Shown: positions 5,449 to 28,327 of the stretch, one piece after another | Position numbering within the stretch: position 1 is the stretch's first letter | How the letters are laid out: every line of letters begins with the position of its first letter | Source: Acidobacteriota bacterium | GTDB lineage: Bacteria > Acidobacteriota > Blastocatellia > UBA7656 | Length of the DNA stretch: 64,000 bases | Direction of reading: 5' to 3' | Assembly: GCA_040754075.1 (NCBI GenBank) | Contig: JBFMDH010000001.1 | Location: forward strand, 166,262-230,261 | Notes under the pieces: generated by a model | The model's database searches: none | What the model saw: the letters and a program-made list of their open reading frames with translations, nothing else | What the model was told of the DNA's origin: nothing | Position numbers and translations under genes: made by a program

Positions 5449-5678
5449 AAGTGAGGTTGTATGATTGCCTGCCCGGTGAACCGTGGTCAAGGATAAGCGC
5501 GATGATTTTCTGACAGCAGGTTTTGATTTAGAGAAGTGGATGAAATGGGCTAATGGAAAACGATTGGTATAGATTTCAATGTGGGCTTCCGCTGGGAAAT
5601 CAACCTTCACGATCAGCCCGGTCTTTTTCCATCAAACCGATTGATAATCAAACCGATTGTAAAGATTTTGCCGATAAA

Positions 5679-7232
5679 TCATTTTTCGTCACTTTGATTT
5701 TGTTCTTCTTCGGCTGAAATCAAACGTAGAACCGTCGTTTTATCGTCTTTATAAACCACTTTAAAAATCCGGCTGCGTTCGGTGATGTCGAGAAACTCTC
5801 GATGTTGATTATCGGTGAACACATATTCGGCTCCGAACCGTTCGCGAATCAAAATCGCCGCGTCGCTTCGACGACCAAGCGTGATGTCGGCGTAAAGATG
5901 CCATAACTCGCGGTCTTGGTCATAAAGATAAGTCGGGTCGAGTCCGGCAGTGTAGGCGTTATTCGGGCTGAAGTAAAAGAGCATCGGGAAATCATCCCAA
6001 TCAGTGTTAAAGACCAGCGTTCCGGGGGACGTGTTTTCCGCGAGCCATTTGCCTGCGCCTTCGTAAGCAAACGGGTCGGCTTCGCTGCTCACATCTTTGC
6101 AGGCTTGTGCGACGTTGATCATCATCGTCGCAAGCAAGGCAATAGCGAGAATGATTGAAACACTGATGGCGATAATCGAATCGCGGGTTCGCGTAAGCCA
6201 TGGGTGATTCAATTGCGGTTTGATGGTGAATGCGCCGAAGAGAATTGCAAACGGCGGAAAGTATTCGATGAACCGCCGCGATTTGAAAACCATGAGCATC
6301 AGCACAATGGCGATGAATAAAAAAAACAGCGGTTTCATATCTTCTGCGCGTTTGCGAAAGTCGAAGGCAATGAGCGCAGCGATGAAAATGATAAACGCGA
6401 GCGCGCTGCTGCCAATGAGCACCCACGAATCATAGGGATACCATTCGACGCCGACGTCGACCGTGTAATTTGCGGTCACTTTCATCAACAGGTGTTCGTA
6501 AAACAGTTTGAGATTGGTGGGGAAATAAGGGTTGATGATTAACCCGGCGATGATGCCGACGGTTGATGCCAGCACCGGACGAAAATCGAATTCACGCCTT
6601 GTTAAGTAAACGCAGGTTGAATAGCCAAGCGCCATCACCAGGGTGAGCGGGAATAGACTGTAAGCCCACACGAAAATGAAGGCGAGACACGCAAGCCACA
6701 AATTCTTGCGTTCCAAAATCAAGTGCGCGCCGATGCCCATCAAAATAATCGAGAGCGCGGGGGCGCGCGTCATGCTCAGGCGATAGAGAAAGGGTTCGGA
6801 ACTGGCGATGAGCGGCAACAGCCAGAGCCAGCGATAGGGGATGCGATACGCGACCAGCAAACCAAAAAGTGAAGTGAGCGCCAGGCTGGAAAAGGCTACA
6901 GCAGCCAGTTTCGCGCCAACGCGCAAATCTCCTAAGGTGAATGGCGAAAGCAACAGGTGATAAAGATAGTGATGGTCAACGTACTCATTTTCGTTGAGCG
7001 TCGTAAGCGGCAAGGCTTTGAATGATGGAAGGGCAGGGAAGGACTCTCTGAGCATCCGGCTCCAGCGAATGTGATAATAGCCGTCGTTATCGAGAATGGC
7101 TTTGCCGGAAAATTGAATCAACGCCATCACCGCCGAAATGACCAGAAAAGCGATGGCAATTTCTAACGCTGCAATTTTTCGCGAAGGCGCGAGCGTCTGA
7201 ACGGAAAGATTTTCTGTGAGCAATTCTTCCAA
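5679..7232 (-). CDS. polytopic membrane protein, possible GT-C-type (ArnT/PMT-like) glycosyltransferase
   Basis: 517 aa with many hydrophobic segments. First loop LDNDGYYHIRWSRML resembles the acidic-aromatic first-loop motif of GT-C enzymes. Assignment is tentative. Confidence 0.4.
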   Translation of the reverse strand: MEELLTENLSVQTLAPSRKIAALEIAIAFLVISAVMALIQFSGKAILDNDGYYHIRWSRMLRESFPALPSFKALPLTTLNENEYVDHHYLYHLLLSPFTLGDLRVGAKLAAVAFSSLALTSLFGLLVAYRIPYRWLWLLPLIASSEPFLYRLSMTRAPALSIILMGIGAHLILERKNLWLACLAFIFVWAYSLFPLTLVMALGYSTCVYLTRREFDFRPVLASTVGIIAGLIINPYFPTNLKLFYEHLLMKVTANYTVDVGVEWYPYDSWVLIGSSALAFIIFIAALIAFDFRKRAEDMKPLFFLFIAIVLMLMVFKSRRFIEYFPPFAILFGAFTIKPQLNHPWLTRTRDSIIAISVSIILAIALLATMMINVAQACKDVSSEADPFAYEGAGKWLAENTSPGTLVFNTDWDDFPMLFYFSPNNAYTAGLDPTYLYDQDRELWHLYADITLGRRSDAAILIRERFGAEYVFTDNQHREFLDITERSRIFKVVYKDDKTTVLRLISAEEEQNQSDEK

Positions 7233-7250
7233 AGCATTTTATTTGAACAA

Positions 7251-9587
7251 CTACTTCGCTTTTGCGACGGCTTGGGCGAGATGGGCTTTGACGGTTTCAA
7301 GTTGCGCAATGAATTGATTCGCCTGTTCGGTGCCGACGTCGCGGAGTTCTTTTTCAATGGCGTTGATGCGGTCGGTTAAAGTTTTGGCTTCGCGGGCGAC
7401 GGCGTTTTTGGAAAGGGATTTGTAAAATCCATCTTCGATACGACCGGCAAAAGTATCGACTTCGGCTCTGAGGTCGGCAACCAACGCGGCAAAAGTTGCG
7501 CGTTGCAAACGCATCAAGCGCTCTTCGCGTTCCTGCAAGGCTGCGGTTCGTTCGCCGAGTTCTTCGGTGCGGGCTTCGACCTGACGGGCGCGACGGTCTA
7601 ACTCTTTTTCCAAAGCTTCGGTGCGGGTCTCTGAACGCGATGCCTGTTCGGAGGCTTGCCCGGCTTGCTCTGCCGCGCGCGCCGCGCGGGTTTCCACATC
7701 GCCGAGTTTTGCGCCCAATTGTTTTTGCAATTCATCGGCTTTTTGATTGGTCGCTTCGACTGCGCCGAGTGCCTGACCTGCGCGAGCATCGGCAGATGAC
7801 GCGCGACCCTCAGCGGCAGCGGCGCGTGAATCCACCTGTGCGACTTGATTGGGCAACTGTGTCGTCGTCTGTTCGAGTTGCGACGACAGCCCCTTGAGCG
7901 CAGTGATTTCGCGGTTTTGCGTCATCAGGGTTTGATAGTGCTCTTTGAATCGTTTGTTGGTGGTGTATTCGTTTTCATCGAAGGCTTCATCAAGTTCGGC
8001 GATTTCATTAATGGCAGATGCTTCACTTTGCGGCAGGCGATTAACGGTTACGGCAGCGGTGCGACGATCAATAGTGGCTGCATTCTGAGGCGCGTCCGGA
8101 CGATTATCTGCCGAGCCGTTAAACAACAAATGGCTGCGCATCAAAGCCACCTGCGAAGGGGCGTTGAGTTTTCCGTTATGCCAAGCCAGCGCATAAACCA
8201 GCGCCCAGAATACGAAGACCACAATACCGGTTAGAATCACCAGCGCCATAAATGAGCGATGGGCTTTTTCCATCAAGGTGAACGGCTCATCGAAATAAGG
8301 CGTCGAGACAATTTCGCGGCGTTCGGGAAAATCGAAATAGCGTTCTTTCAATTTTTCAAAAACGCTTTTGTCCGGCGGTGCGGGCGTATACACCGGCTGC
8401 CCGTACTCTTGATTGGGATATTCCGAAGAAAATTCCGCAGGCGGAATGATTTCAACTTCCTGAACCGGTTTAGCGCGACGTGTGCGCCCGGTGGCGCTTT
8501 CAAAAACCGACAGCACGGGACCAATCAGGTAGTAGATTAAAAACAGCAGGGCATAAATTCCCAAATTGACCAATCCCCATTTGCGCATCGACCGATTCAC
8601 ATCGCCCAGGTAAGCGCGATAAATGTGTTCATCACGTTCACGCAAGAAAGGTTCGACTTGCCAGATGCCAAGCTCCGGTGTGGGCGTAGCAATAACGCGG
8701 GCTTCCTGTTCAATGCGGTCTTCGGAATAGATGCGATTGCGGTCAAGGTAATAAGTCAGCCAGTCGCGAAAGCCATCAGGGTCTTGCCCGCCGTTGACAT
8801 ATTCATCAACGACCTGCAAGCCGTTGCGCCAGGCGGCGTCGCTCGCGCTCAGTTTGGAAGTAATCCAGCGACCGGGACCGTTGCGCAGATAGGTTTCATA
8901 ATCGCCTTGAAATTTGGCATCGGAAAACAGCCAGTTGTTTTTGACAGCTTCACGATAAGCTTGCTCGGTTGTCCCTTGATTTTTAGCAAACAGGAAAAGC
9001 GATGATTTAACGGATACGGGATTTTTTTCTTTAACGTCGTATTTGAAAATAAAGATTGTCCAGCCAATTGAAAGCGCAAGAATGAAAATCGAGATCGGCA
9101 CGGTTTTGCGCCACGACCGAAAAAAACGACCGCTGAAAATGGCAGCAATGCTGAGCATCGGGGCGGCAAAGAAAAATAGAAAAACGAAAAGGTATAGAGA
9201 GACCGGCTCTTCGTGCGGCAAGGTTTTCGGCCACCAGCCGGGCGTTGGCGCGTACCTGGCAAAAAGCCAGGTTGCCAGCAAACAGATCAACAGAATGAGT
9301 TGTTGAAAGCCAACCAGCATCAAAAAGAGCGCCAGGCGTGCCCCCCACTTTGACGATGCCATGCGCCGCCAGAAGGTGCGCGTCAAGCGTTCATCAATTT
9401 CCTGTTTCAGTGCGGTGAGGTCTTCATCGGTGGCTTCGAGTTTGGTGTCGCCAAGTTCTTCTCTGAGGCGTGTCAGTTTATTGAGCGCCGCAAATTTTGC
9501 AAATGGTGAAAGGCTGCGCTCTTTATTGTCGAGCGCGACTAAATATTCGCGAATAATATCCGTATCCCTTGTGATAATGGTTTCCAT
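7251..9587 (-). CDS. large membrane protein with long C-terminal coiled-coil, function unknown
   Basis: 778 aa. Several TM segments in the first ~470 aa. The C-terminal ~250 aa is A/E/R/Q-rich with heptad-like repeats (ETRAARAAEQAGQASEQASRSETRTEALEKELDRRARQVEARTEELGERTAALQEREERL). Confidence 0.55.
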   Translation of the reverse strand: METIITRDTDIIREYLVALDNKERSLSPFAKFAALNKLTRLREELGDTKLEATDEDLTALKQEIDERLTRTFWRRMASSKWGARLALFLMLVGFQQLILLICLLATWLFARYAPTPGWWPKTLPHEEPVSLYLFVFLFFFAAPMLSIAAIFSGRFFRSWRKTVPISIFILALSIGWTIFIFKYDVKEKNPVSVKSSLFLFAKNQGTTEQAYREAVKNNWLFSDAKFQGDYETYLRNGPGRWITSKLSASDAAWRNGLQVVDEYVNGGQDPDGFRDWLTYYLDRNRIYSEDRIEQEARVIATPTPELGIWQVEPFLRERDEHIYRAYLGDVNRSMRKWGLVNLGIYALLFLIYYLIGPVLSVFESATGRTRRAKPVQEVEIIPPAEFSSEYPNQEYGQPVYTPAPPDKSVFEKLKERYFDFPERREIVSTPYFDEPFTLMEKAHRSFMALVILTGIVVFVFWALVYALAWHNGKLNAPSQVALMRSHLLFNGSADNRPDAPQNAATIDRRTAAVTVNRLPQSEASAINEIAELDEAFDENEYTTNKRFKEHYQTLMTQNREITALKGLSSQLEQTTTQLPNQVAQVDSRAAAAEGRASSADARAGQALGAVEATNQKADELQKQLGAKLGDVETRAARAAEQAGQASEQASRSETRTEALEKELDRRARQVEARTEELGERTAALQEREERLMRLQRATFAALVADLRAEVDTFAGRIEDGFYKSLSKNAVAREAKTLTDRINAIEKELRDVGTEQANQFIAQLETVKAHLAQAVAKAK

Positions 9588-10478: not shown

Positions 10479-10884
10479 AATGAAATTACGCCCACACCGG
10501 GTGGGGATGTATAGCCGGGTGTACAACAGAAAAATCAAAAAAACAATTATTCATAATCATGGTGGGAAGTGGCAAGTGATGAAGCTAAATGTTGGTGAGC
10601 AAAATGCGCTGAAACGATTTATTTCAACGGGCGCTGAACCGGTTATTGGTAAAAAGCCGTTCTAATTCTCAATTCGGACAGCATCCCTTGAACTTTCGGG
10701 TGAACGCTATTTGCTCTCTCTCCGCCCAATCCGAGGATAAATTTTAACCTGTCGTTTACGGGCGCTTTAGATTTCGAGAGAAGACCAGAGGCTTTAAGCA
10801 GAGCGCAAGTTCTGCGTTGACCTGAGCGAATGGCAAAGCAACTTCTCAGTAACGGTTTGCGATTTGACATCGTTTCTTTTCAGT

Positions 10885-10913
10885 TTGACAATAAATTATG
10901 CGCAAAATAATAT
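10885..10913 (+). promoter_or_regulatory. sigma70-like promoter upstream of nuoA
   Basis: TTGACA (10885-10890), 17 nt spacer, TAATAT (10908-10913), about 48 nt upstream of the nuoA ATG. Confidence 0.5.
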
Positions 10914-10960: not shown

Positions 10961-11377
10961 ATGACAAACGTAATCGGTTTATTGCTCCAGACACAAACAC
11001 CAACCTCTTCAACCAAAGCGCCGATTTATGGCTATATTCCCATTATTATCTTTTTCCTGATTGCCGCCTTGTTGCCGGTGGTGTTGCTTTTCGTCTCCAG
11101 ACTTCTGCATCGACGGGTCTTCGAGCGCCAGAAACTGATGCCCTATGAATGCGGCATTGACCCGATTGGCGATGCCCGTGACCGGTTTTCAGTGCGCTTT
11201 TATATCGTCGCTATGCTGTTTCTGGTCTTCGACGTCGAAGTGGTTTTTCTGTTTCCCTGGGCGGTCATTTACGACAAGCTGGCGCTTTTCGGGTTGATTG
11301 AAATGCTCATCTTTATCGGCATTCTGGTTATCGGTTATTATTATGCCTGGCGCAAGGGCGCACTCGAATGGGCGTAA
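10961..11377 (+). CDS. nuoA: NADH-quinone oxidoreductase subunit A
   Basis: 138 aa with 3 TM segments. YECGIDPIGDARDRFSVRFYIVAMLFLVFDVEVVFLFPWAV is the NuoA/ND3 signature. Confidence 0.93.
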   Translation: MTNVIGLLLQTQTPTSSTKAPIYGYIPIIIFFLIAALLPVVLLFVSRLLHRRVFERQKLMPYECGIDPIGDARDRFSVRFYIVAMLFLVFDVEVVFLFPWAVIYDKLALFGLIEMLIFIGILVIGYYYAWRKGALEWA

Positions 11378-11380
11378 ATA

Positions 11381-11549
11381 AATTGCGGATTGCGGATTGC
11401 CTGGATTTATAACTGGTTTTCACTTTCATGCCTAGATCACGGTTGCGCAGTAATAATGAAAGCCAGGAAAAAGAAATTGATTGATCTGCACACATCAAGC
11501 AAAGCAGAGATTTGAAAAAAGACAATCCGCATTTCGCAATCCGCAATTG
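11381..11549. repeat. inverted (ATTGCGG)n arrays enclosing a ~120 bp non-coding segment in the nuoA-nuoB spacer
   Basis: Left arm aattgcggattgcggattgcc (11381-11401). Right arm caatccgcatttcgcaatccgcaattg (11523-11549). Same repeat unit as 27362-27390 and 28280-28327. Confidence 0.8.
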
Positions 11550-11559
11550 AAAGGGTTTT

Positions 11560-12102
11560 ATGGCAAAAGAAGAAATTGTTGAATCTTCGAGCGGGATTAT
11601 TACTTCAACCGTTGATGCGGTGTTTAATTGGGCGCGCGCCTCGGCGCTCTGGCCGATGACCTTTGGGCTTGCCTGTTGCGCCATTGAGATGATGGCGACC
11701 GGCGCTTCACGTTTCGATTTAGACCGATTCGGAGCAGGGGTATTTCGTCCGAGTCCGCGTCAATCCGATTTGATGATTGTCGCAGGAACGCCGACACTCA
11801 AAATGGCACCGGTCATCAAGCGCGTCTGGGATCAGATGCCGGAACCGAAATGGTGCATTGCGATGGGCGCTTGTGCATCGACGGGCGGGCCGTTTCCGAC
11901 CTATTCGACCTTGCAAGGCGTTGACCGCATCGTTCCCGTCGATGTCTACATTCCGGGTTGTCCGCCGCGCCCCGAAGCTTTGATTTACGGCTTGATGCGT
12001 TTGCAGGACAAAATCATGCAGGAGCATCCGACGCGTTACGTTTTCTTTCAGGGCGATGTCAGCGAGGAAGAGGTCGAGGGCGCGGAAGCGGTGACCGCTT
12101 AA
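11560..12102 (+). CDS. nuoB: NADH-quinone oxidoreductase subunit B
   Basis: 180 aa. [26 protein letters not shown] and IPGCPPRPE are the N2 Fe-S cluster cysteine motifs. Confidence 0.95.
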
Positions 12103-12124
12103 CCAATTCGCAAATGAAAAGCTG

Positions 12125-12154
12125 GCGCAGGGGCTTGGTTCTCTGCGCTTTTTT
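12125..12154 (+). terminator. rho-independent terminator-like hairpin after nuoB
   Basis: gcgcagggg-cttggt-tctctgcgc stem (about 8-9 bp including G-U pairs) followed by tttttt. Lies 13 nt before the next start codon. Confidence 0.55.
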
Positions 12155-12166
12155 ATTGGGTAGAAG

Positions 12167-13306
12167 ATGAGCGACACAACCGCACTCGAAAAAAAAATAA
12201 TCGAACGCATCAACCGCGACGGCGCAATGAGCTTTCGCGATTTTATGCAACTGGCGCTTTATGATGCGGAACTTGGCTATTACAACACCGAGCGGTTGAA
12301 GATTGGCGCAACCGGTGATTATTACACCTCAAGCAATGTCCACCCGGCATTCGGCGCAATCCTCGCGCAAGTCTTCGTTCGGTTGTGGAAAGACCTCAGT
12401 AGTGACAACCCTGAAAATGCGAACAGCGAATATCTTGAGAGCGATACTGCCTCACCCTTGAACCTCGTTGAAATGGGCGCGGGAACCGGGCAACTGGCAT
12501 TCGATGTTTTAAGCGCCTTGCGTGATGAACACGCCGAAGGGTTTGCGCGCGCGAATTACACGATTATTGAACAAAGTCCGGTGATGCGCGCCAGACAACA
12601 GGAAAAGTTGAATGATTTCAGCGAGCGGGTTTGCTGGCAAACCTTTGCCGCGTTAAAGCCGACCGCCGGAATTTTCTTTTCCAATGAACTGGTTGATGCG
12701 ATGCCTGTGCATCGCTTGCGCTTTACCGGCGAAACCGTCGAAGAACTTTATGTAATCGTAGTTGACGAATCGCATCACCAACGTCTCGCCGTTGTCTGGG
12801 GCGCGCTTTCAAAACCGCAACTGGTTGAATATCTCAAACGTTCGCAGGCGAAATTTTTTCAAGGGCAAATGATCGAAGTCAATCTCGATGCCATTCACTG
12901 GTTGTGGGAAGTTTCCCGCGTGATGGAAAAAGGTTTTTTAGTGACCCTTGATTACGGCGACCTCGCGCCGCATCTCTATTCGGTTGAACGCCTGGAAGGC
13001 ACGCTCAGATGTTTTTACCGGCACACCTTGCGCGATAATCCGCTGGAACGTATTGGTGAACAAGACCTCACTGCCAGCGTCAATTTTTCGGCGCTGATTG
13101 ATTACGGGAAAGATTTCGGATTTGAACAGGTGAGTTACGAACGACAGACCAATTTTCTCTTTCGCAATGGGTTGATTGAACGCATCGCGGCAATGGAAAC
13201 GGGCGACACGATTGATGATTTACAGAAACGCCTGGCGATAAAAAATCTCTTTGTGCCCGGCGGCGTGAGCGATAATTTCCGCGTACTGGTTCAACGGAAA
13301 CCTTAG
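12167..13306 (+). CDS. SAM-dependent methyltransferase, MidA/NDUFAF7 (DUF185) family
   Basis: 379 aa. MSFRDFMQLALYDAELGYYN N-terminal family motif. VEMGAGTGQLAFDVL SAM-binding motif I. ELVDAMPVH. Confidence 0.8.
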   Translation: MSDTTALEKKIIERINRDGAMSFRDFMQLALYDAELGYYNTERLKIGATGDYYTSSNVHPAFGAILAQVFVRLWKDLSSDNPENANSEYLESDTASPLNLVEMGAGTGQLAFDVLSALRDEHAEGFARANYTIIEQSPVMRARQQEKLNDFSERVCWQTFAALKPTAGIFFSNELVDAMPVHRLRFTGETVEELYVIVVDESHHQRLAVVWGALSKPQLVEYLKRSQAKFFQGQMIEVNLDAIHWLWEVSRVMEKGFLVTLDYGDLAPHLYSVERLEGTLRCFYRHTLRDNPLERIGEQDLTASVNFSALIDYGKDFGFEQVSYERQTNFLFRNGLIERIAAMETGDTIDDLQKRLAIKNLFVPGGVSDNFRVLVQRKP

Positions 13307-13336: not shown

Positions 13337-14302
13337 TTATTGACTTCGGGTTTTCTTTTTTCGTTCGGCAGCCGACGTTCGTTTATTTTTGCTGAGAATT
13401 TCAGAAAGTCGCTTTTTCAGCACGTCGGCGCTTGGCATATCCAGTAACTCTACGCACAGTTGTTGAAGCAGGGCGGCATTTTGAATGCGTTTGATTTCGG
13501 CTGAAACATTGAGATTGGGAAAACGTTTGGCGACCATCATCGTGAGCGATTCAGCCGCACCTTTAATTTCGCCTCGTCGTTCGCCTTTCTTTTCACCTCG
13601 TTTTTCGCCTTTCCTTTCACCTTCCTGCAACACCAGTTGATAGAAACTCGATTCTTTTAATTGTTCAATGGGAATCATACCTTTCTCCACAATCAACGCT
13701 AACAGGTCTTCACGATTCTAGCGCAACCCGCCAAGCATCAAAAAGTGTACGCCTAAATCACCTTTTAGCCGTTCATCTTTCACGCCGCGCAAAGCTTTTG
13801 CAGCAGCCTGTAATTCTTTCTCTCCGCCTTTCATTAGAGGAATAAAGGGCAATAAATTTTGGCGTGGCATTGCCAGTACGCGATGCGCAGGAATTTCCCA
13901 CAATTTCACCAATTTGAAGGCAGATTTGATTTCCAACACACCTGCCTGAATCCTTCCTGAGTCGGGCAAATAACCGGGCAGACCTTTTGGCGTCAGCATT
14001 AACACATAACTGAAAATTGGCAGACGATATTTCATCCACAATCGCGCATCATATTCGGGCATTCGCGTCAATACATCATCATTCCATTGCGTCTGGGCTT
14101 CCGGGTGAACAATAAATTTGCCTTTCGCATTCGTCACGCGATAGGTCTGGTCGGTTAAAATCGTTGAAGCGCTTAACTCCAGCGGCAATTTTTCAATCAC
14201 CGCCCTTTCATTTGCCTTGAGATGTCCGAGCAAAATTAACAGCGATTTTGCATCTTGTTCCGCCAAATATTTAAATGCCTGGTCGTAAGGTTTGCTGCTC
14301 AT
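13337..14302 (-). pseudogene. Rpn-family PD-(D/E)XK nuclease / putative transposase with DUF4351-like C-terminus, copy 2 (in-frame TAG)
   Basis: ORFs 13718-14302 and 13337-13696 share a frame and are separated by a single TAG at 13718-13720 (GVHFLMLGGLR*NREDLLALIVEKGMIP). Copy 1 has Tyr at that position (GGLRYNRVRLLEMILEKGMIP). Confidence 0.7.
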
Positions 14303-14311
14303 CGAAATCCT

Positions 14312-15838
14312 TTATGCGCGGTTGCGAACATATAACTCCGTCAAATGGTTTAACCGGTTGCTCAAGTGTTCATTCAAGGCATTGGCTTTATAACGCCATT
14401 GCCAGTTGCCCTGCTGACTGGCGGGCAGATTCATTCGCGCTTCGGAACCCAGTCCCAGAATATCCTGCATCGGAATAATTGCCGTATCGGCAACCGACGC
14501 AAGTACGGCGCGAATGAAATCCCAGTGAATCGCTTTGCCGCGAGTGTTCAAATAATCCATACAGAATCGCTTTTCGGCGGCGATCTGTTCGGCGCTGCGG
14601 GTTGAACCTTCACCCGCCTTGCTGTTAAACCAACCGACCGCCGTGTCATTGTCATGGGTTCCCGTATAAGCGACCGAATGCGGAATATAATTGTGCGGCA
14701 AATCGATGTTGGCGCGGTCGCGAAAGGCGAATTGAAAAATCCGCATACCAGGAAAACCGAAACCGTCGCGCAAGGCTTCAACATCGGGCGTTATCACGCC
14801 TAAATCTTCGGCGATGATCGGGAGTTCACCCAGCATTTCATTTAATCTCGTGAACAACGCTTTGCCGGGAACTTCGACCCAGCGCCCGTTCTTGGCGGTC
14901 TTATCGCGCGCCGGAACTTCCCAGGTCGCGCAGAAGCCGCGAAAATGGTCTATGCGAACGATGTCAACCGTGTTGAATGTCGCCTGCAATCGCTCAATCC
15001 ACCACTGGAATTTTGTCGCCTGCATCTTCTCCCAGTTGTAAATCGGATTGCCCCAGAGTTGCCCGGTCTTGCTGAAATAATCGGGCGGCACGCCGGCGAC
15101 CACCAAAGGTCTGCCCTTGGCGTCGAGTTTGAACAACTCAGGATTAGTCCACACATCTGCGGAATCATAAGCGATAAAAATCGGCACATCGCCGATGATT
15201 TTGATGCCTTTGTCATGACAATAATTTTTGAGCGCCCGCCACTCCTTGAAAAACAGAAATTGAAAAAAGCGATGGGCTTCGATTTTATCGTGTAATTTCT
15301 CGCGCGCCTCATTGATGGCTTTGGCGTCGCGCAAAGCGTATTGCGGTTTCCACTTATTCCAGGCGACGCCTTTATGCTGGTCTTTCAGGGCGCGAAACAA
15401 TGCATAATCATCAAGCCAGGGGGCGGCTTCCTGTCTGAACGCCAGAAAGGCTGCGCGCAGGTCGGTGTCGGTTGATTTTTTGAAATTGCTGTAGGCTCGC
15501 TCAAGTAATCCCATTTTGTAAGGAATCACCCAGCCGAAATCGATTTTTTCAACGGGGAATTTCGGCACGCCGCGCAAATCCTGCTTATCGAGCAAGCCTT
15601 CGGCGACGAGTTGTTCAGGGCTAACCAGCAAGGGATTTCCGGCAAAAGCGGAAAAACATTGATAAGGCGAGTCGCCATAACCTGTGGGTCCCAGCGGTAA
15701 AACTTGCCAGAGGCTTTGTTCGCTTGCCGCAAGAAAATCGATAAAACGATAGGCTTCGTCGCCTAAATCGCCAATGCCGAAACGGTTCGGTAAAGATGTC
15801 GGATGAAGTAAAATGCCACTGAGTCTAGGAAAACGCAT
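14312..15838 (-). CDS. malQ: 4-alpha-glucanotransferase (GH77 amylomaltase)
   Basis: 508 aa. GILLHPTSLPNRFGIGDLG...WQVLPLGPTGYGDSPYQCFSAFAGNPLL and the RIDHFRGF catalytic region. Confidence 0.93.
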   Translation of the reverse strand: MRFPRLSGILLHPTSLPNRFGIGDLGDEAYRFIDFLAASEQSLWQVLPLGPTGYGDSPYQCFSAFAGNPLLVSPEQLVAEGLLDKQDLRGVPKFPVEKIDFGWVIPYKMGLLERAYSNFKKSTDTDLRAAFLAFRQEAAPWLDDYALFRALKDQHKGVAWNKWKPQYALRDAKAINEAREKLHDKIEAHRFFQFLFFKEWRALKNYCHDKGIKIIGDVPIFIAYDSADVWTNPELFKLDAKGRPLVVAGVPPDYFSKTGQLWGNPIYNWEKMQATKFQWWIERLQATFNTVDIVRIDHFRGFCATWEVPARDKTAKNGRWVEVPGKALFTRLNEMLGELPIIAEDLGVITPDVEALRDGFGFPGMRIFQFAFRDRANIDLPHNYIPHSVAYTGTHDNDTAVGWFNSKAGEGSTRSAEQIAAEKRFCMDYLNTRGKAIHWDFIRAVLASVADTAIIPMQDILGLGSEARMNLPASQQGNWQWRYKANALNEHLSNRLNHLTELYVRNRA

Positions 15839-27361: not shown

Positions 27362-27390
27362 CAATTGCGGATTGCGGATTGCGGATTGCC
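27362..27390. repeat. (ATTGCGG)4 heptamer array, left arm flanking the GIY-YIG cassette
   Basis: caattgcggattgcggattgcggattgcc. Near-perfect inverted match to 28280-28313. Confidence 0.85.
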
Positions 27391-27492
27391 GCTGCCAACT
27401 CATTCACCTTCACTTAAATATTTAACCCCGACAACCAAACATAGACTTGCCATCGCTAACGCTAAATTTAGTGACTAAAGGTGCAAGATATT

Positions 27493-28116
27493 CTACGCTT
27501 CAAAAAGTTCAGGTAACCCATATAAAAGAACTGTAGAGGTACTATTAACTAAAAACGGTTTCTCTTCGATCCAACGAGGAGCAAGAGCCATACCTTTATC
27601 TGGAATGGTACTAATAGGTTCTTCTGCTGAATAAAGTAAATTCATAATGGCTGCTTCTATTCTTGCAAGACTTCTACGTTCAGTGTTCAAAGGAGCAAGA
27701 AATATCCGAAAAGCAGAAAGCAAAGATTCTATTGGAAGTTCCAGTTCTTGATAACGAGAGTGAAACAATTGCTTCATTTCAGGAGTATTCGTAGACTTGC
27801 CCATCCACATACCATGCCAAAGTTCAACCCTCTTACCATTTTGCAAACTCTCAGGATCAAAAATTGTATAGGTTCCTTTTCTATAAGTGGCTATGTGTTC
27901 TTTAAGTCGCTTTTTAAAGGGTCTTGTAGTCCAGCCAGCCATATAGATTAAATACCCATTATTGTGTTCAACAGTAAAAAGATAAATTCCTGATTGCTCA
28001 ACTACTGGAGATTTTAAAAACAACTCTCCTTCACAACCTTGTAAAACTAGCGGACCTTTCCATGAAAGTAAGTAACTATCATGATCAGTATCATTGAGCA
28101 TAATTTTATTTGCCAC
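27493..28116 (-). CDS. GIY-YIG nuclease-domain protein, otherwise uncharacterised
   Basis: 207 aa. SGIYLFTVEHNNGYLIYMAGWTTRPFKKRLKEH fits GIY-(x9-11)-YxG-x-T-x(5-6)-R-x3-H, as in I-TevI and UvrC N-domains. The gene is visibly AT-richer than its flanks (by eye). Confidence 0.55.
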   Translation of the reverse strand: MANKIMLNDTDHDSYLLSWKGPLVLQGCEGELFLKSPVVEQSGIYLFTVEHNNGYLIYMAGWTTRPFKKRLKEHIATYRKGTYTIFDPESLQNGKRVELWHGMWMGKSTNTPEMKQLFHSRYQELELPIESLLSAFRIFLAPLNTERRSLARIEAAIMNLLYSAEEPISTIPDKGMALAPRWIEEKPFLVNSTSTVLLYGLPELFEA

Positions 28117-28175
28117 CTATCGACACAAAGCCGCCGAACTTCTATTTGAGAGCGGCTTACAAAATAATTCGCTGA

Positions 28176-28239
28176 GGTTGAGCAAGCGGTCTTTGACTAC
28201 GTCGTTATGACTTACTTGGTTGAGCAATCGGTCTTTGAC
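28176..28239. repeat. two direct copies of a 22-mer (ggttgagcaaNcggtctttgac), 42 bp apart
   Basis: 28176-28197 ggttgagcaagcggtctttgac and 28218-28239 ggttgagcaatcggtctttgac. The reverse complement recurs twice at 61083-61129. Confidence 0.75.
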
Positions 28240-28279
28240 CGCGTAAGGAATCGCAATCAAAGACCACTTGTGCGGCGCT

Positions 28280-28327
28280 CAATCCGCAATCCGCATTTCG
28301 CAATCCGCAATTGGAAAATCCGCAATT
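28280..28327. repeat. (CCGCAAT)n heptamer array, right arm; overlaps the serS stop codon
   Basis: caatccgcaatccgcatttcgcaatccgcaattggaaaatccgcaatt. Confidence 0.85.

Follow-up and report, generated by a model that had tools for sequence, protein, structure and literature searches.

A nuoA-nuoB-midA gene set from an Acidobacteriota genome as the probable front of a complex I operon with its own predicted NuoD methyltransferase

Introduction

In mitochondria, the methyltransferase NDUFAF7 symmetrically dimethylates Arg-85 of human NDUFS2, the equivalent of bacterial NuoD, and is needed for an early step of complex I assembly (PMC3829151). This arginine belongs to an HRGxE motif beside cluster N2, and the role of its methyl groups is still open (PMC8042128). 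Here we describe a 64,000-nucleotide stretch of the genome of a soil member of the Acidobacteriota (contig JBFMDH010000001.1, positions 166,262 to 230,261, forward strand; hereafter the window) in which the complex I genes nuoA and nuoB are followed by midA, a gene for a methyltransferase of the NDUFAF7 family (Table 1). Comparison with related loci makes it probable that the triad is the front of a complex I operon of acidobacterial type with a built-in maturation enzyme, MidA, which would methylate NuoD and would be expressed by read-through.

Several described systems resemble parts of this picture. In Paracoccus denitrificans, the same arginine of Nqo4 (NuoD) is symmetrically dimethylated (Carroll et al. 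2013, PMC3750175), which makes this enzyme the one bacterial complex I with the HRGxE modification shown and the precedent for the one proposed here. Paracoccus differs in being an alphaproteobacterium with a 14-subunit enzyme, and the paper names neither the gene responsible nor an operon linkage. The position is occupied by threonine in Thermus (PMC3750175), and in Escherichia coli the arginine is present and unmethylated (PMC8042128). The nuo operon of Rhodobacter capsulatus includes urf7, a methyltransferase-like gene of the S-adenosylmethionine (SAM)-dependent type with an assembly role proposed in silico (PMC9036352); it is a non-subunit ORF with a product of 257 aa.

The human NDUFAF7 and Dictyostelium discoideum MidA proteins (5ZTZ/5ZU0/5ZZW for the latter) share with the window protein the PF02636 domain, the full-length fold, SAM motif I, the motifs NExxDAxP, DYG and QDxTAxV, and an association with complex I, which for the window protein is one of gene neighborhood only. 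The window protein differs in being bacterial and without a targeting peptide, in having its gene inside or beside a complex I operon, and in having an activity and substrate that are predicted. The closest solved bacterial relatives are a COG1565 protein of Burkholderia thailandensis (4F3N/4G67; template-modeling [TM] score 0.85, 27% identity) and a DUF185 protein of Rhodopseudomonas palustris (1ZKD; TM scores of 0.77-0.79, 23% identity). Both are structural-genomics entries whose titles carry no assigned function.

Results

Conservation of the triad and its place in complete operons

The first-pass annotation of this stretch, made from its letters alone, had allowed that the nuoB-midA adjacency might be unique to this genome. 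It is not: the two genes adjoin in 6/6 related Blastocatellia-type loci with a readable junction (L001/L002, L003, L004, L005 and L085), and linkage to complex I genes recurs in other Acidobacteriota, in Nitrospira and in cyanobacteria (see below). The full nuoA-nuoB-midA triad is present in L001/L002 (MidA 62% identical to that of the window), L003 (55%), L004 (60%) and L005 (53%), while L085 shows nuoB-midA on a contig that starts within nuoB. Upstream neighbors of the triad vary from locus to locus, and a convergent malQ gene downstream is common to several. In these Blastocatellia-type loci the triad stands alone, with no nuoC-N gene within 8-10 kb. Because the adjacency is kept despite MidA identities of 53-71% and differing flanks, and because nuo genes are the commonest neighbors of midA across phyla, we regard it as above chance.

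Three loci with midA inside a complete complex I operon were reached by a search with an acidobacterial NuoD. In one (L164) the order is nuoA-nuoB-midA-nuoC-nuoD-nuoH-I-J-K-L-M-N, where midA and nuoB share 4 bp, and a second (L166), on a 4.75-Mb contig, has the same gene order. In a Terriglobia metagenome-assembled genome (L167), midA lies 5 bp after nuoB and is followed by a DNA ligase gene and then by nuoD-H and further genes. These clusters encode 11 subunits and are without nuoE, nuoF and nuoG. NuoB of L164 is 83% identical to that of the window, and MidA 32%. In a neighbor-joining tree of NuoB, the clade that holds the in-operon loci is sister to one that contains the Blastocatellia triads together with nuoAB-alone loci without midA. 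A related NuoD lineage (L168) has the complementary half, a cluster that starts at nuoC with no nuoAB upstream.

Read in the simplest way, these arrangements make the triad of the window the front of an 11-subunit operon that would have been broken after midA, the order of events being taken from distance trees without support values. The odd-looking order of nuoAB followed by a methyltransferase gene would thus be explained as a broken operon. The first-pass annotation had described midA as standing "instead of" nuoC/D, which has to be dropped: in related Acidobacteriota a complete operon has midA after nuoB and before nuoC, and a replacement of nuoC/D by midA is ruled out by the intact nuoC-nuoD directly after midA in L164 and L166. 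Nor is a split nuo cluster non-standard, as had been stated, since a 2025 survey found that most clades mix split and single-cluster complex I (PMC12361115).

Cyanobacteria offer a comparison for the split. We take their gene order to be ndhC-ndhK-ndhJ. As in such split clusters (PMC12361115), homologues of nuoA and nuoB are encoded in the window apart from most subunits; unlike ndhC-ndhK-ndhJ, the window fragment stops after nuoB and has a maturation enzyme in place of nuoC/ndhJ.

Two further observations concern acidobacterial-type and metagenomic nuo loci. In the clusters L165 and L168, nuoJ directly follows nuoH and no nuoI was called in the cluster. Many metagenomic contigs carry a stand-alone nuoB (61-75% identical): neither nuoA nor nuoC/D was detected in the flanks examined (≤10 kb per side). 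These contigs include L095-L098, L100, L104, L116, L120, L122, L125, L128, L130, L135 and others.

Linkage of midA to complex I genes in other phyla

A scan of one genome per species, based on an alignment of 104 MidA sequences, yielded 80 loci spread over many phyla. In 18 Nitrospira-type loci midA is the first gene, immediately 5' of nuoA and in the same orientation, and the operon continues as nuoA-nuoB-nuoCD(fused)-nuoE-nuoF-nuoG; the midA-nuoA gap is 6 bp in L042. In cyanobacteria, midA directly adjoins ndhH, the NuoD homologue (confirmed by PF00346), in 5 of 23 loci; ndhH precedes midA in L034, L035, L053 and L059 and follows it in L040. The order midA-nuoA-nuoB, with a very divergent MidA, occurs in two taxonomically unassigned metagenomic loci (L109 and L111). 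In L059 (Chroococcidiopsidaceae; 5461-7944), two tandem copies of ndhH lie directly upstream of midA.

Clustering of all open reading frames (ORFs) within 3.5 kb of midA at about 85 loci placed NuoB (21 loci), NuoCD/NdhH (17) and NuoA (16) as the commonest neighbor families. Of the other recurrent neighbors, two transporter-like families (7 loci each) spanned several phyla, and the rest were confined to single lineages. In the MidA tree, nuo-linked lineages are interspersed with unlinked ones. Together with the differing gene orders, this suggests that at least four midA-nuo arrangements arose or were kept separately. The suggestion of the first-pass annotation that linkage of a bacterial MidA to nuo genes hints at a conserved functional link thus gains support from its recurrence in Acidobacteriota, Nitrospira and cyanobacteria. 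We found no description of a nuo-midA neighborhood in the literature searched, a search whose scope did not extend to the 2018 MidA structure paper or to gene-context databases.

The methyltransferase

Window MidA scores 198.1 bits with PF02636 (Methyltransf_28; cut-off 23.3 bits), at E=2.3e-58. Direct matches in the Protein Data Bank (PDB) were 4F3N (5e-26), 1ZKD (2e-16) and Dictyostelium MidA 5ZTZ (1.4e-7), and a profile of the MidA family matched the same proteins over their full length (4F3N, 5e-85; 1ZKD, 1e-60; Dictyostelium MidA, 1.8e-56, residues 21-390). An AlphaFold2 model of the protein has a predicted local distance difference test score (pLDDT) of 94.4 and a predicted TM score (pTM) of 0.92. 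The top six Foldseek hits of this model were 4G67, 4F3N, 5ZU0, 5ZTZ and two chains of 1ZKD (TM 0.77-0.85; 0.85 to 4G67 and 0.79-0.80 to 5ZU0/5ZTZ), after which came generic methyltransferases at TM <0.45.

All 12 residues invariant in the family (104-sequence alignment A1) are kept in window MidA. SAM motif I (E-x-G-x-G-x-G) is formed by E102, G104, G106 and G108 (EMGAGTG), and further invariant or near-invariant columns are E174 and D177 (NELVDAMP), D262-Y-G264 and D300; the same motifs align to Dictyostelium MidA. The closest relatives (53-71% identity) bear the name Blastocatellia. In a neighbor-joining tree, which is distance-based and without support values, 1ZKD and Dictyostelium MidA group apart from the Blastocatellia, Nitrospira and cyanobacterial clades. 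By profile and modeled fold, the window protein is a genuine MidA/NDUFAF7-family enzyme of a non-proteobacterial clade. The earlier assignment to MidA/NDUFAF7 therefore stands as far as full-length family membership goes, and falls as regards clade, which is distinct from the alphaproteobacterial/mitochondrial one.

An acidic, lineage-specific loop, SSDNPENANSEYLESDTASP (12398-12457, MidA residues ~78-97), is the sole lower-confidence part of the model, with block pLDDT values of 66-83 versus 87-98 elsewhere.

NuoA, NuoB and the complex I content of the window

NuoA matches PF00507 with 137.8 bits against a cut-off of 23.3 (E=1.5e-40) and is 81-94% identical to NuoA of the Blastocatellia-type loci. 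It scores below the cut-offs of the NCBIfam equivalog models (131 versus 163), so it is a diverged NuoA outside those particular equivalog groups. NuoB matches PF01058 (2.6e-28), TIGR01957 (245.5 bits versus a cut-off of 142.7) and NF005012 (249.6 versus 116), and its best solved relative is 7Q5Y_F (7.5e-73). Its translation contains C39 and C40 (LACCAIEM), C105 (GACAS) and C134 (PGCPP), which we take from established family knowledge to be the expected ligands of cluster N2; all four are present. Among Blastocatellia-type relatives NuoB is 91-93% identical, and MidA of the same relatives merely 53-62%, which argues for strong purifying selection on NuoB.

The ORFs for nuoA, nuoB and a MidA-type methyltransferase, all on the + strand, have the coordinates first given for them, and the initial finding of only two complex I genes in 64 kb also held, as no third was detected by Pfam and tblastn. 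Searches of all 64 kb by tblastn with NuoCD, NuoE, NuoF and NuoG gave no match. Pfam scans of 38 large window ORFs revealed no further nuo gene; NuoH-N were covered by these scans only, and 7 ORFs of at least 150 aa lay outside them. Searches with acidobacterial NuoD queries for nuoC-N of the source genome gave no protein on the source contig, nor on two contigs from relatives (7.9 Mb and 634 kb).

Predicted substrate and function

MidA would use SAM to methylate the HRGxE arginine of NuoD, which adjoins the cluster N2 carried by NuoB. Methylation would fall in the step that joins NuoD to NuoB, by analogy to the action of NDUFAF7 on NDUFS2 Arg-85 in mitochondria. Without exception, the NuoD/NdhH proteins read beside clusters linked to midA have this arginine, as part of HRGVE (Nitrospira and L164) or HRGME (cyanobacteria). 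Window NuoB has a threonine at position 77 (in the residues AGT), for which the equivalent Thermus Nqo6 residue, by ungapped offset, is Arg-83. This Nqo6 arginine is said to fill the same space as the NuoD arginine (PMC8042128). The threonine of window NuoB is a weak, indirect hint that its partner NuoD may supply the arginine.

Nine metagenomic nuoD genes encode HTGxE, with threonine as in Thermus (L126, L134, L136, L137, L140, L146, L150, L154 and L155), and none of their operons has midA nearby. Slr0320, which came up in the literature on ndhH and methyltransferases, is a radical-SAM enzyme and was set aside as irrelevant to midA.

A conserved hairpin between nuoB and midA

The terminator scan identified a 10-pair stem (6 G-C) at 12124-12149, followed by TTTTTTATT. 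The hairpin and T-run after nuoB that had been noted at 12125-12154 are thus present, at slightly revised limits (Table 1). L001, L003, L004, L084 and L085 each have an equivalent hairpin and T-rich tail, giving a total of 6/7 Blastocatellia-type loci. Of the 13 pairs in the RNAalifold consensus, 4 are maintained by compensatory substitutions in both arms of the stem. Loci with midA within a full operon lack the hairpin. Its folding energy in a single copy is unexceptional (z=-1.3) and was discarded as a measure of significance; the case rests on conservation. With its G+C-rich stem-loop, its U-run and its conservation in relatives, the element has the features of an intrinsic (Rho-independent) terminator.

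Two matches to sigma-70-type promoters lie 5' of nuoA (TTGACA-17-GACAAT and TTGACA-17-TAATAT, each matching at 10/12 positions). A consensus scan found no + strand promoter match between 11344 and 13219, hence none between nuoB and midA. The distance from the T-run to the midA start codon is ~10 nt in the window and 5-50 nt in relatives. With no promoter-like site and no room between T-run and midA start, midA transcripts must cross the hairpin. Transcription would start upstream of nuoA, and most transcripts would stop at the hairpin and T-run after nuoB; a minority would read through, which would keep the level of the MidA enzyme low relative to the structural subunits. The hairpin would then be a leaky terminator that holds the enzyme below the level of the structural subunits.

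Discussion

The conserved terminator allows a second reading of expression, in which the hairpin stops all transcription and midA is transcribed alone, a mere neighbor outside the nuoAB transcription unit. A canonical hairpin and T-run kept with compensatory changes in nearly all Blastocatellia-type loci, and missing from full operons that contain midA, is what such separation would look like. The short distance between T-run and start codon, in the window as in its relatives, and the interval's lack of a promoter-like site, so that any midA transcript crosses the hairpin, speak for leakage; we consider full termination unlikely, though worth keeping in mind. It touches expression alone and leaves the functional link unaffected. 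Another alternative treats the adjacency as a leftover from an earlier gene order, without present function, and has the methyltransferase act on another protein, on DNA or on a small molecule. Family members next to nuo genes are a minority in the 80-locus sample, a terminator is conserved between nuoB and midA, the window protein and the characterized NDUFAF7 fall in separate clades, and expression of Wolbachia MidA in E. coli has been reported to lead to DNA methylation (PMC12455994). A leftover would hardly be expected to show linkage to complex I in at least four arrangements and three phyla, one of them with midA directly beside ndhH, the gene for the predicted substrate; nor would it account for NuoB, NuoCD/NdhH and NuoA being the top three neighbor families, or for a triad retained while its surroundings change. 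We judge a functionless leftover distinctly improbable.

Gene order in two of the phyla would also fit an enzyme that modifies NuoB, or NuoA, rather than NuoD. In Acidobacteriota midA directly follows nuoB, overlapping it in L164, in Nitrospira it directly precedes nuoA-nuoB, and the mammalian NuoB homologue PSST has a modified arginine (PMC3750175). That modification is a hydroxylation, not a methylation, and NDUFS2/NuoD is the sole substrate demonstrated so far for the family (PMC3829151). The cyanobacterial neighbor of midA is ndhH and not ndhK or ndhC, and nuoC-nuoD come directly after midA in the acidobacterial operon, which leaves NuoB or NuoA as very unlikely targets. There is little, too, to recommend the view that the isolated nuoAB is a redundant or decaying partial copy, with a working complex I encoded wholly elsewhere. 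No nuoC-N was found in the window, and genomes with multiple nuo clusters exist, L114 with its two nuoB copies among the loci seen here. Yet the nuoA and nuoB ORFs are both intact, NuoB keeps all four cluster N2 cysteines and is under strong purifying selection as judged from its identity relative to that of MidA, and L168 starts at nuoC without nuoAB, as a true split predicts; a decaying copy is, in our estimate, a very unlikely explanation.

The front-of-operon reading, with MidA acting on NuoD, thus appears the probable one, and the following points weigh against it. The function of prokaryotic MidA was described in 2025 as inferred in silico only, in the paper that also reports the Wolbachia result (PMC12455994). 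The role of the non-proteobacterial MidA clade is predicted from genomic data. Identity between window MidA and the Dictyostelium protein is ~20%, and the mitochondrial/alphaproteobacterial clade does not include window MidA. At most of the 80 sampled loci the family member lies away from nuo genes (for example in Geobacter, Paenibacillus and Terriglobia L046/L058/L062), and so it does in L006 and L007, the nearest relatives outside Blastocatellia. Being common in bacteria, and unmethylated in E. coli (PMC8042128), the HRGxE arginine does not discriminate. The terminator conserved between nuoB and midA could also mean that the two genes are expressed separately. Finally, nuoC-N and NuoD of the source genome were not found in the searches described above, so nuoAB here may not be the sole copy.

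The operon context of midA is informative and not surprising in kind: the midA-nuo linkage offers independent genomic support for the same MidA role in bacteria. More broadly, and tentatively, MidA-type methylation of the HRGxE arginine of NuoD/NdhH could be an old and widespread step of bacterial complex I maturation and not a proteobacterial/mitochondrial specialty, a possibility that we hold with some reserve. If so, the step would be written into the operons of 11-subunit acidobacterial and 14-subunit Nitrospira enzymes and would extend to the photosynthetic NDH-1 of cyanobacteria. NdhH of midA-carrying cyanobacteria should then hold a dimethylarginine beside cluster N2; we know of no report of one. 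The title of the MidA structure paper of 2018 (Shahul Hameed et al., Cell Rep) speaks of a "proteobacterial origin", and the distribution described here is wider than that. The linkage points to transformable cyanobacteria and cultured Nitrospira as organisms in which loss of the modification would not be lethal and would reveal what it does for cluster N2 and for assembly.

Locus layout and further features of the window

Table 1. Features of the nuoA-nuoB-midA locus (window coordinates)
Feature	Position	Strand	Family or remark
Two overlapping sigma-70-like promoter matches 5' of nuoA	10864-10913	+	consensus matches only
nuoA (ND3 homologue, 138 aa)	10961-11377	+	PF00507
Insertion filling the nuoA-nuoB spacer, 168 bp	11381-11548		ATTGCGG terminal inverted repeats
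nuoB (PSST/NDUFS7 homologue, 180 aa)	11560-12102	+	PF01058, TIGR01957
G+C-rich hairpin (GGCGCAGGGG...CTCTGCGC) and T-run, intrinsic-terminator-like, between nuoB and midA	12124-12157	+	
midA (SAM-dependent methyltransferase, MidA/NDUFAF7 family, 379 aa)	12167-13306	+	PF02636, COG1565

The nuoA-nuoB spacer measures 182 bp in the window versus 10-81 bp in L001, L003 and L004, so the 168-bp element that fills it is specific to the window lineage. The element has no ORF, its 20-nt terminal inverted repeats are built of ATTGCGG heptamers, and its RNA fold reaches -52.9 kcal/mol (z=-3.4). Matches to the repeat number 8 in the window against 0.08 expected. A second ATTGCGG-bounded insertion, at 27364-28311, is an AT-rich cassette of ~950 bp with inverted heptamer arrays at its ends; it holds a 207-aa ORF (27493-28116, - strand) that matches nothing in Pfam or NCBIfam. 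The ATTGCGG-bounded insertions may be a family of small mobile elements.

The nuoA-nuoB spacer seems prone to insertions. In a sister lineage (L094, NuoB 82% identical), a gene of the TIGR02436 four-helix-bundle family lies between nuoA and nuoB (1464-1862); no midA follows nuoB there, and a NuoCD-like match starts 7.5 kb downstream. An Rfam scan of the whole window gave no family at gathering score, which places both the nuoA-nuoB spacer and the nuoB-midA hairpin outside known RNA families.

Two ORFs without a family match, 13337-13696 (- strand) and 13718-14302 (- strand), separate midA from the convergent malQ (14312-15838). As malQ directly follows midA in L001, L004 and L005, they look like a lineage-specific insertion. 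Upstream of the triad, a 778-aa ORF (7251-9587, - strand) has several hydrophobic, membrane-spanning-looking stretches and a long C-terminal region rich in Ala, Glu and Arg, and its family matches are marginal.

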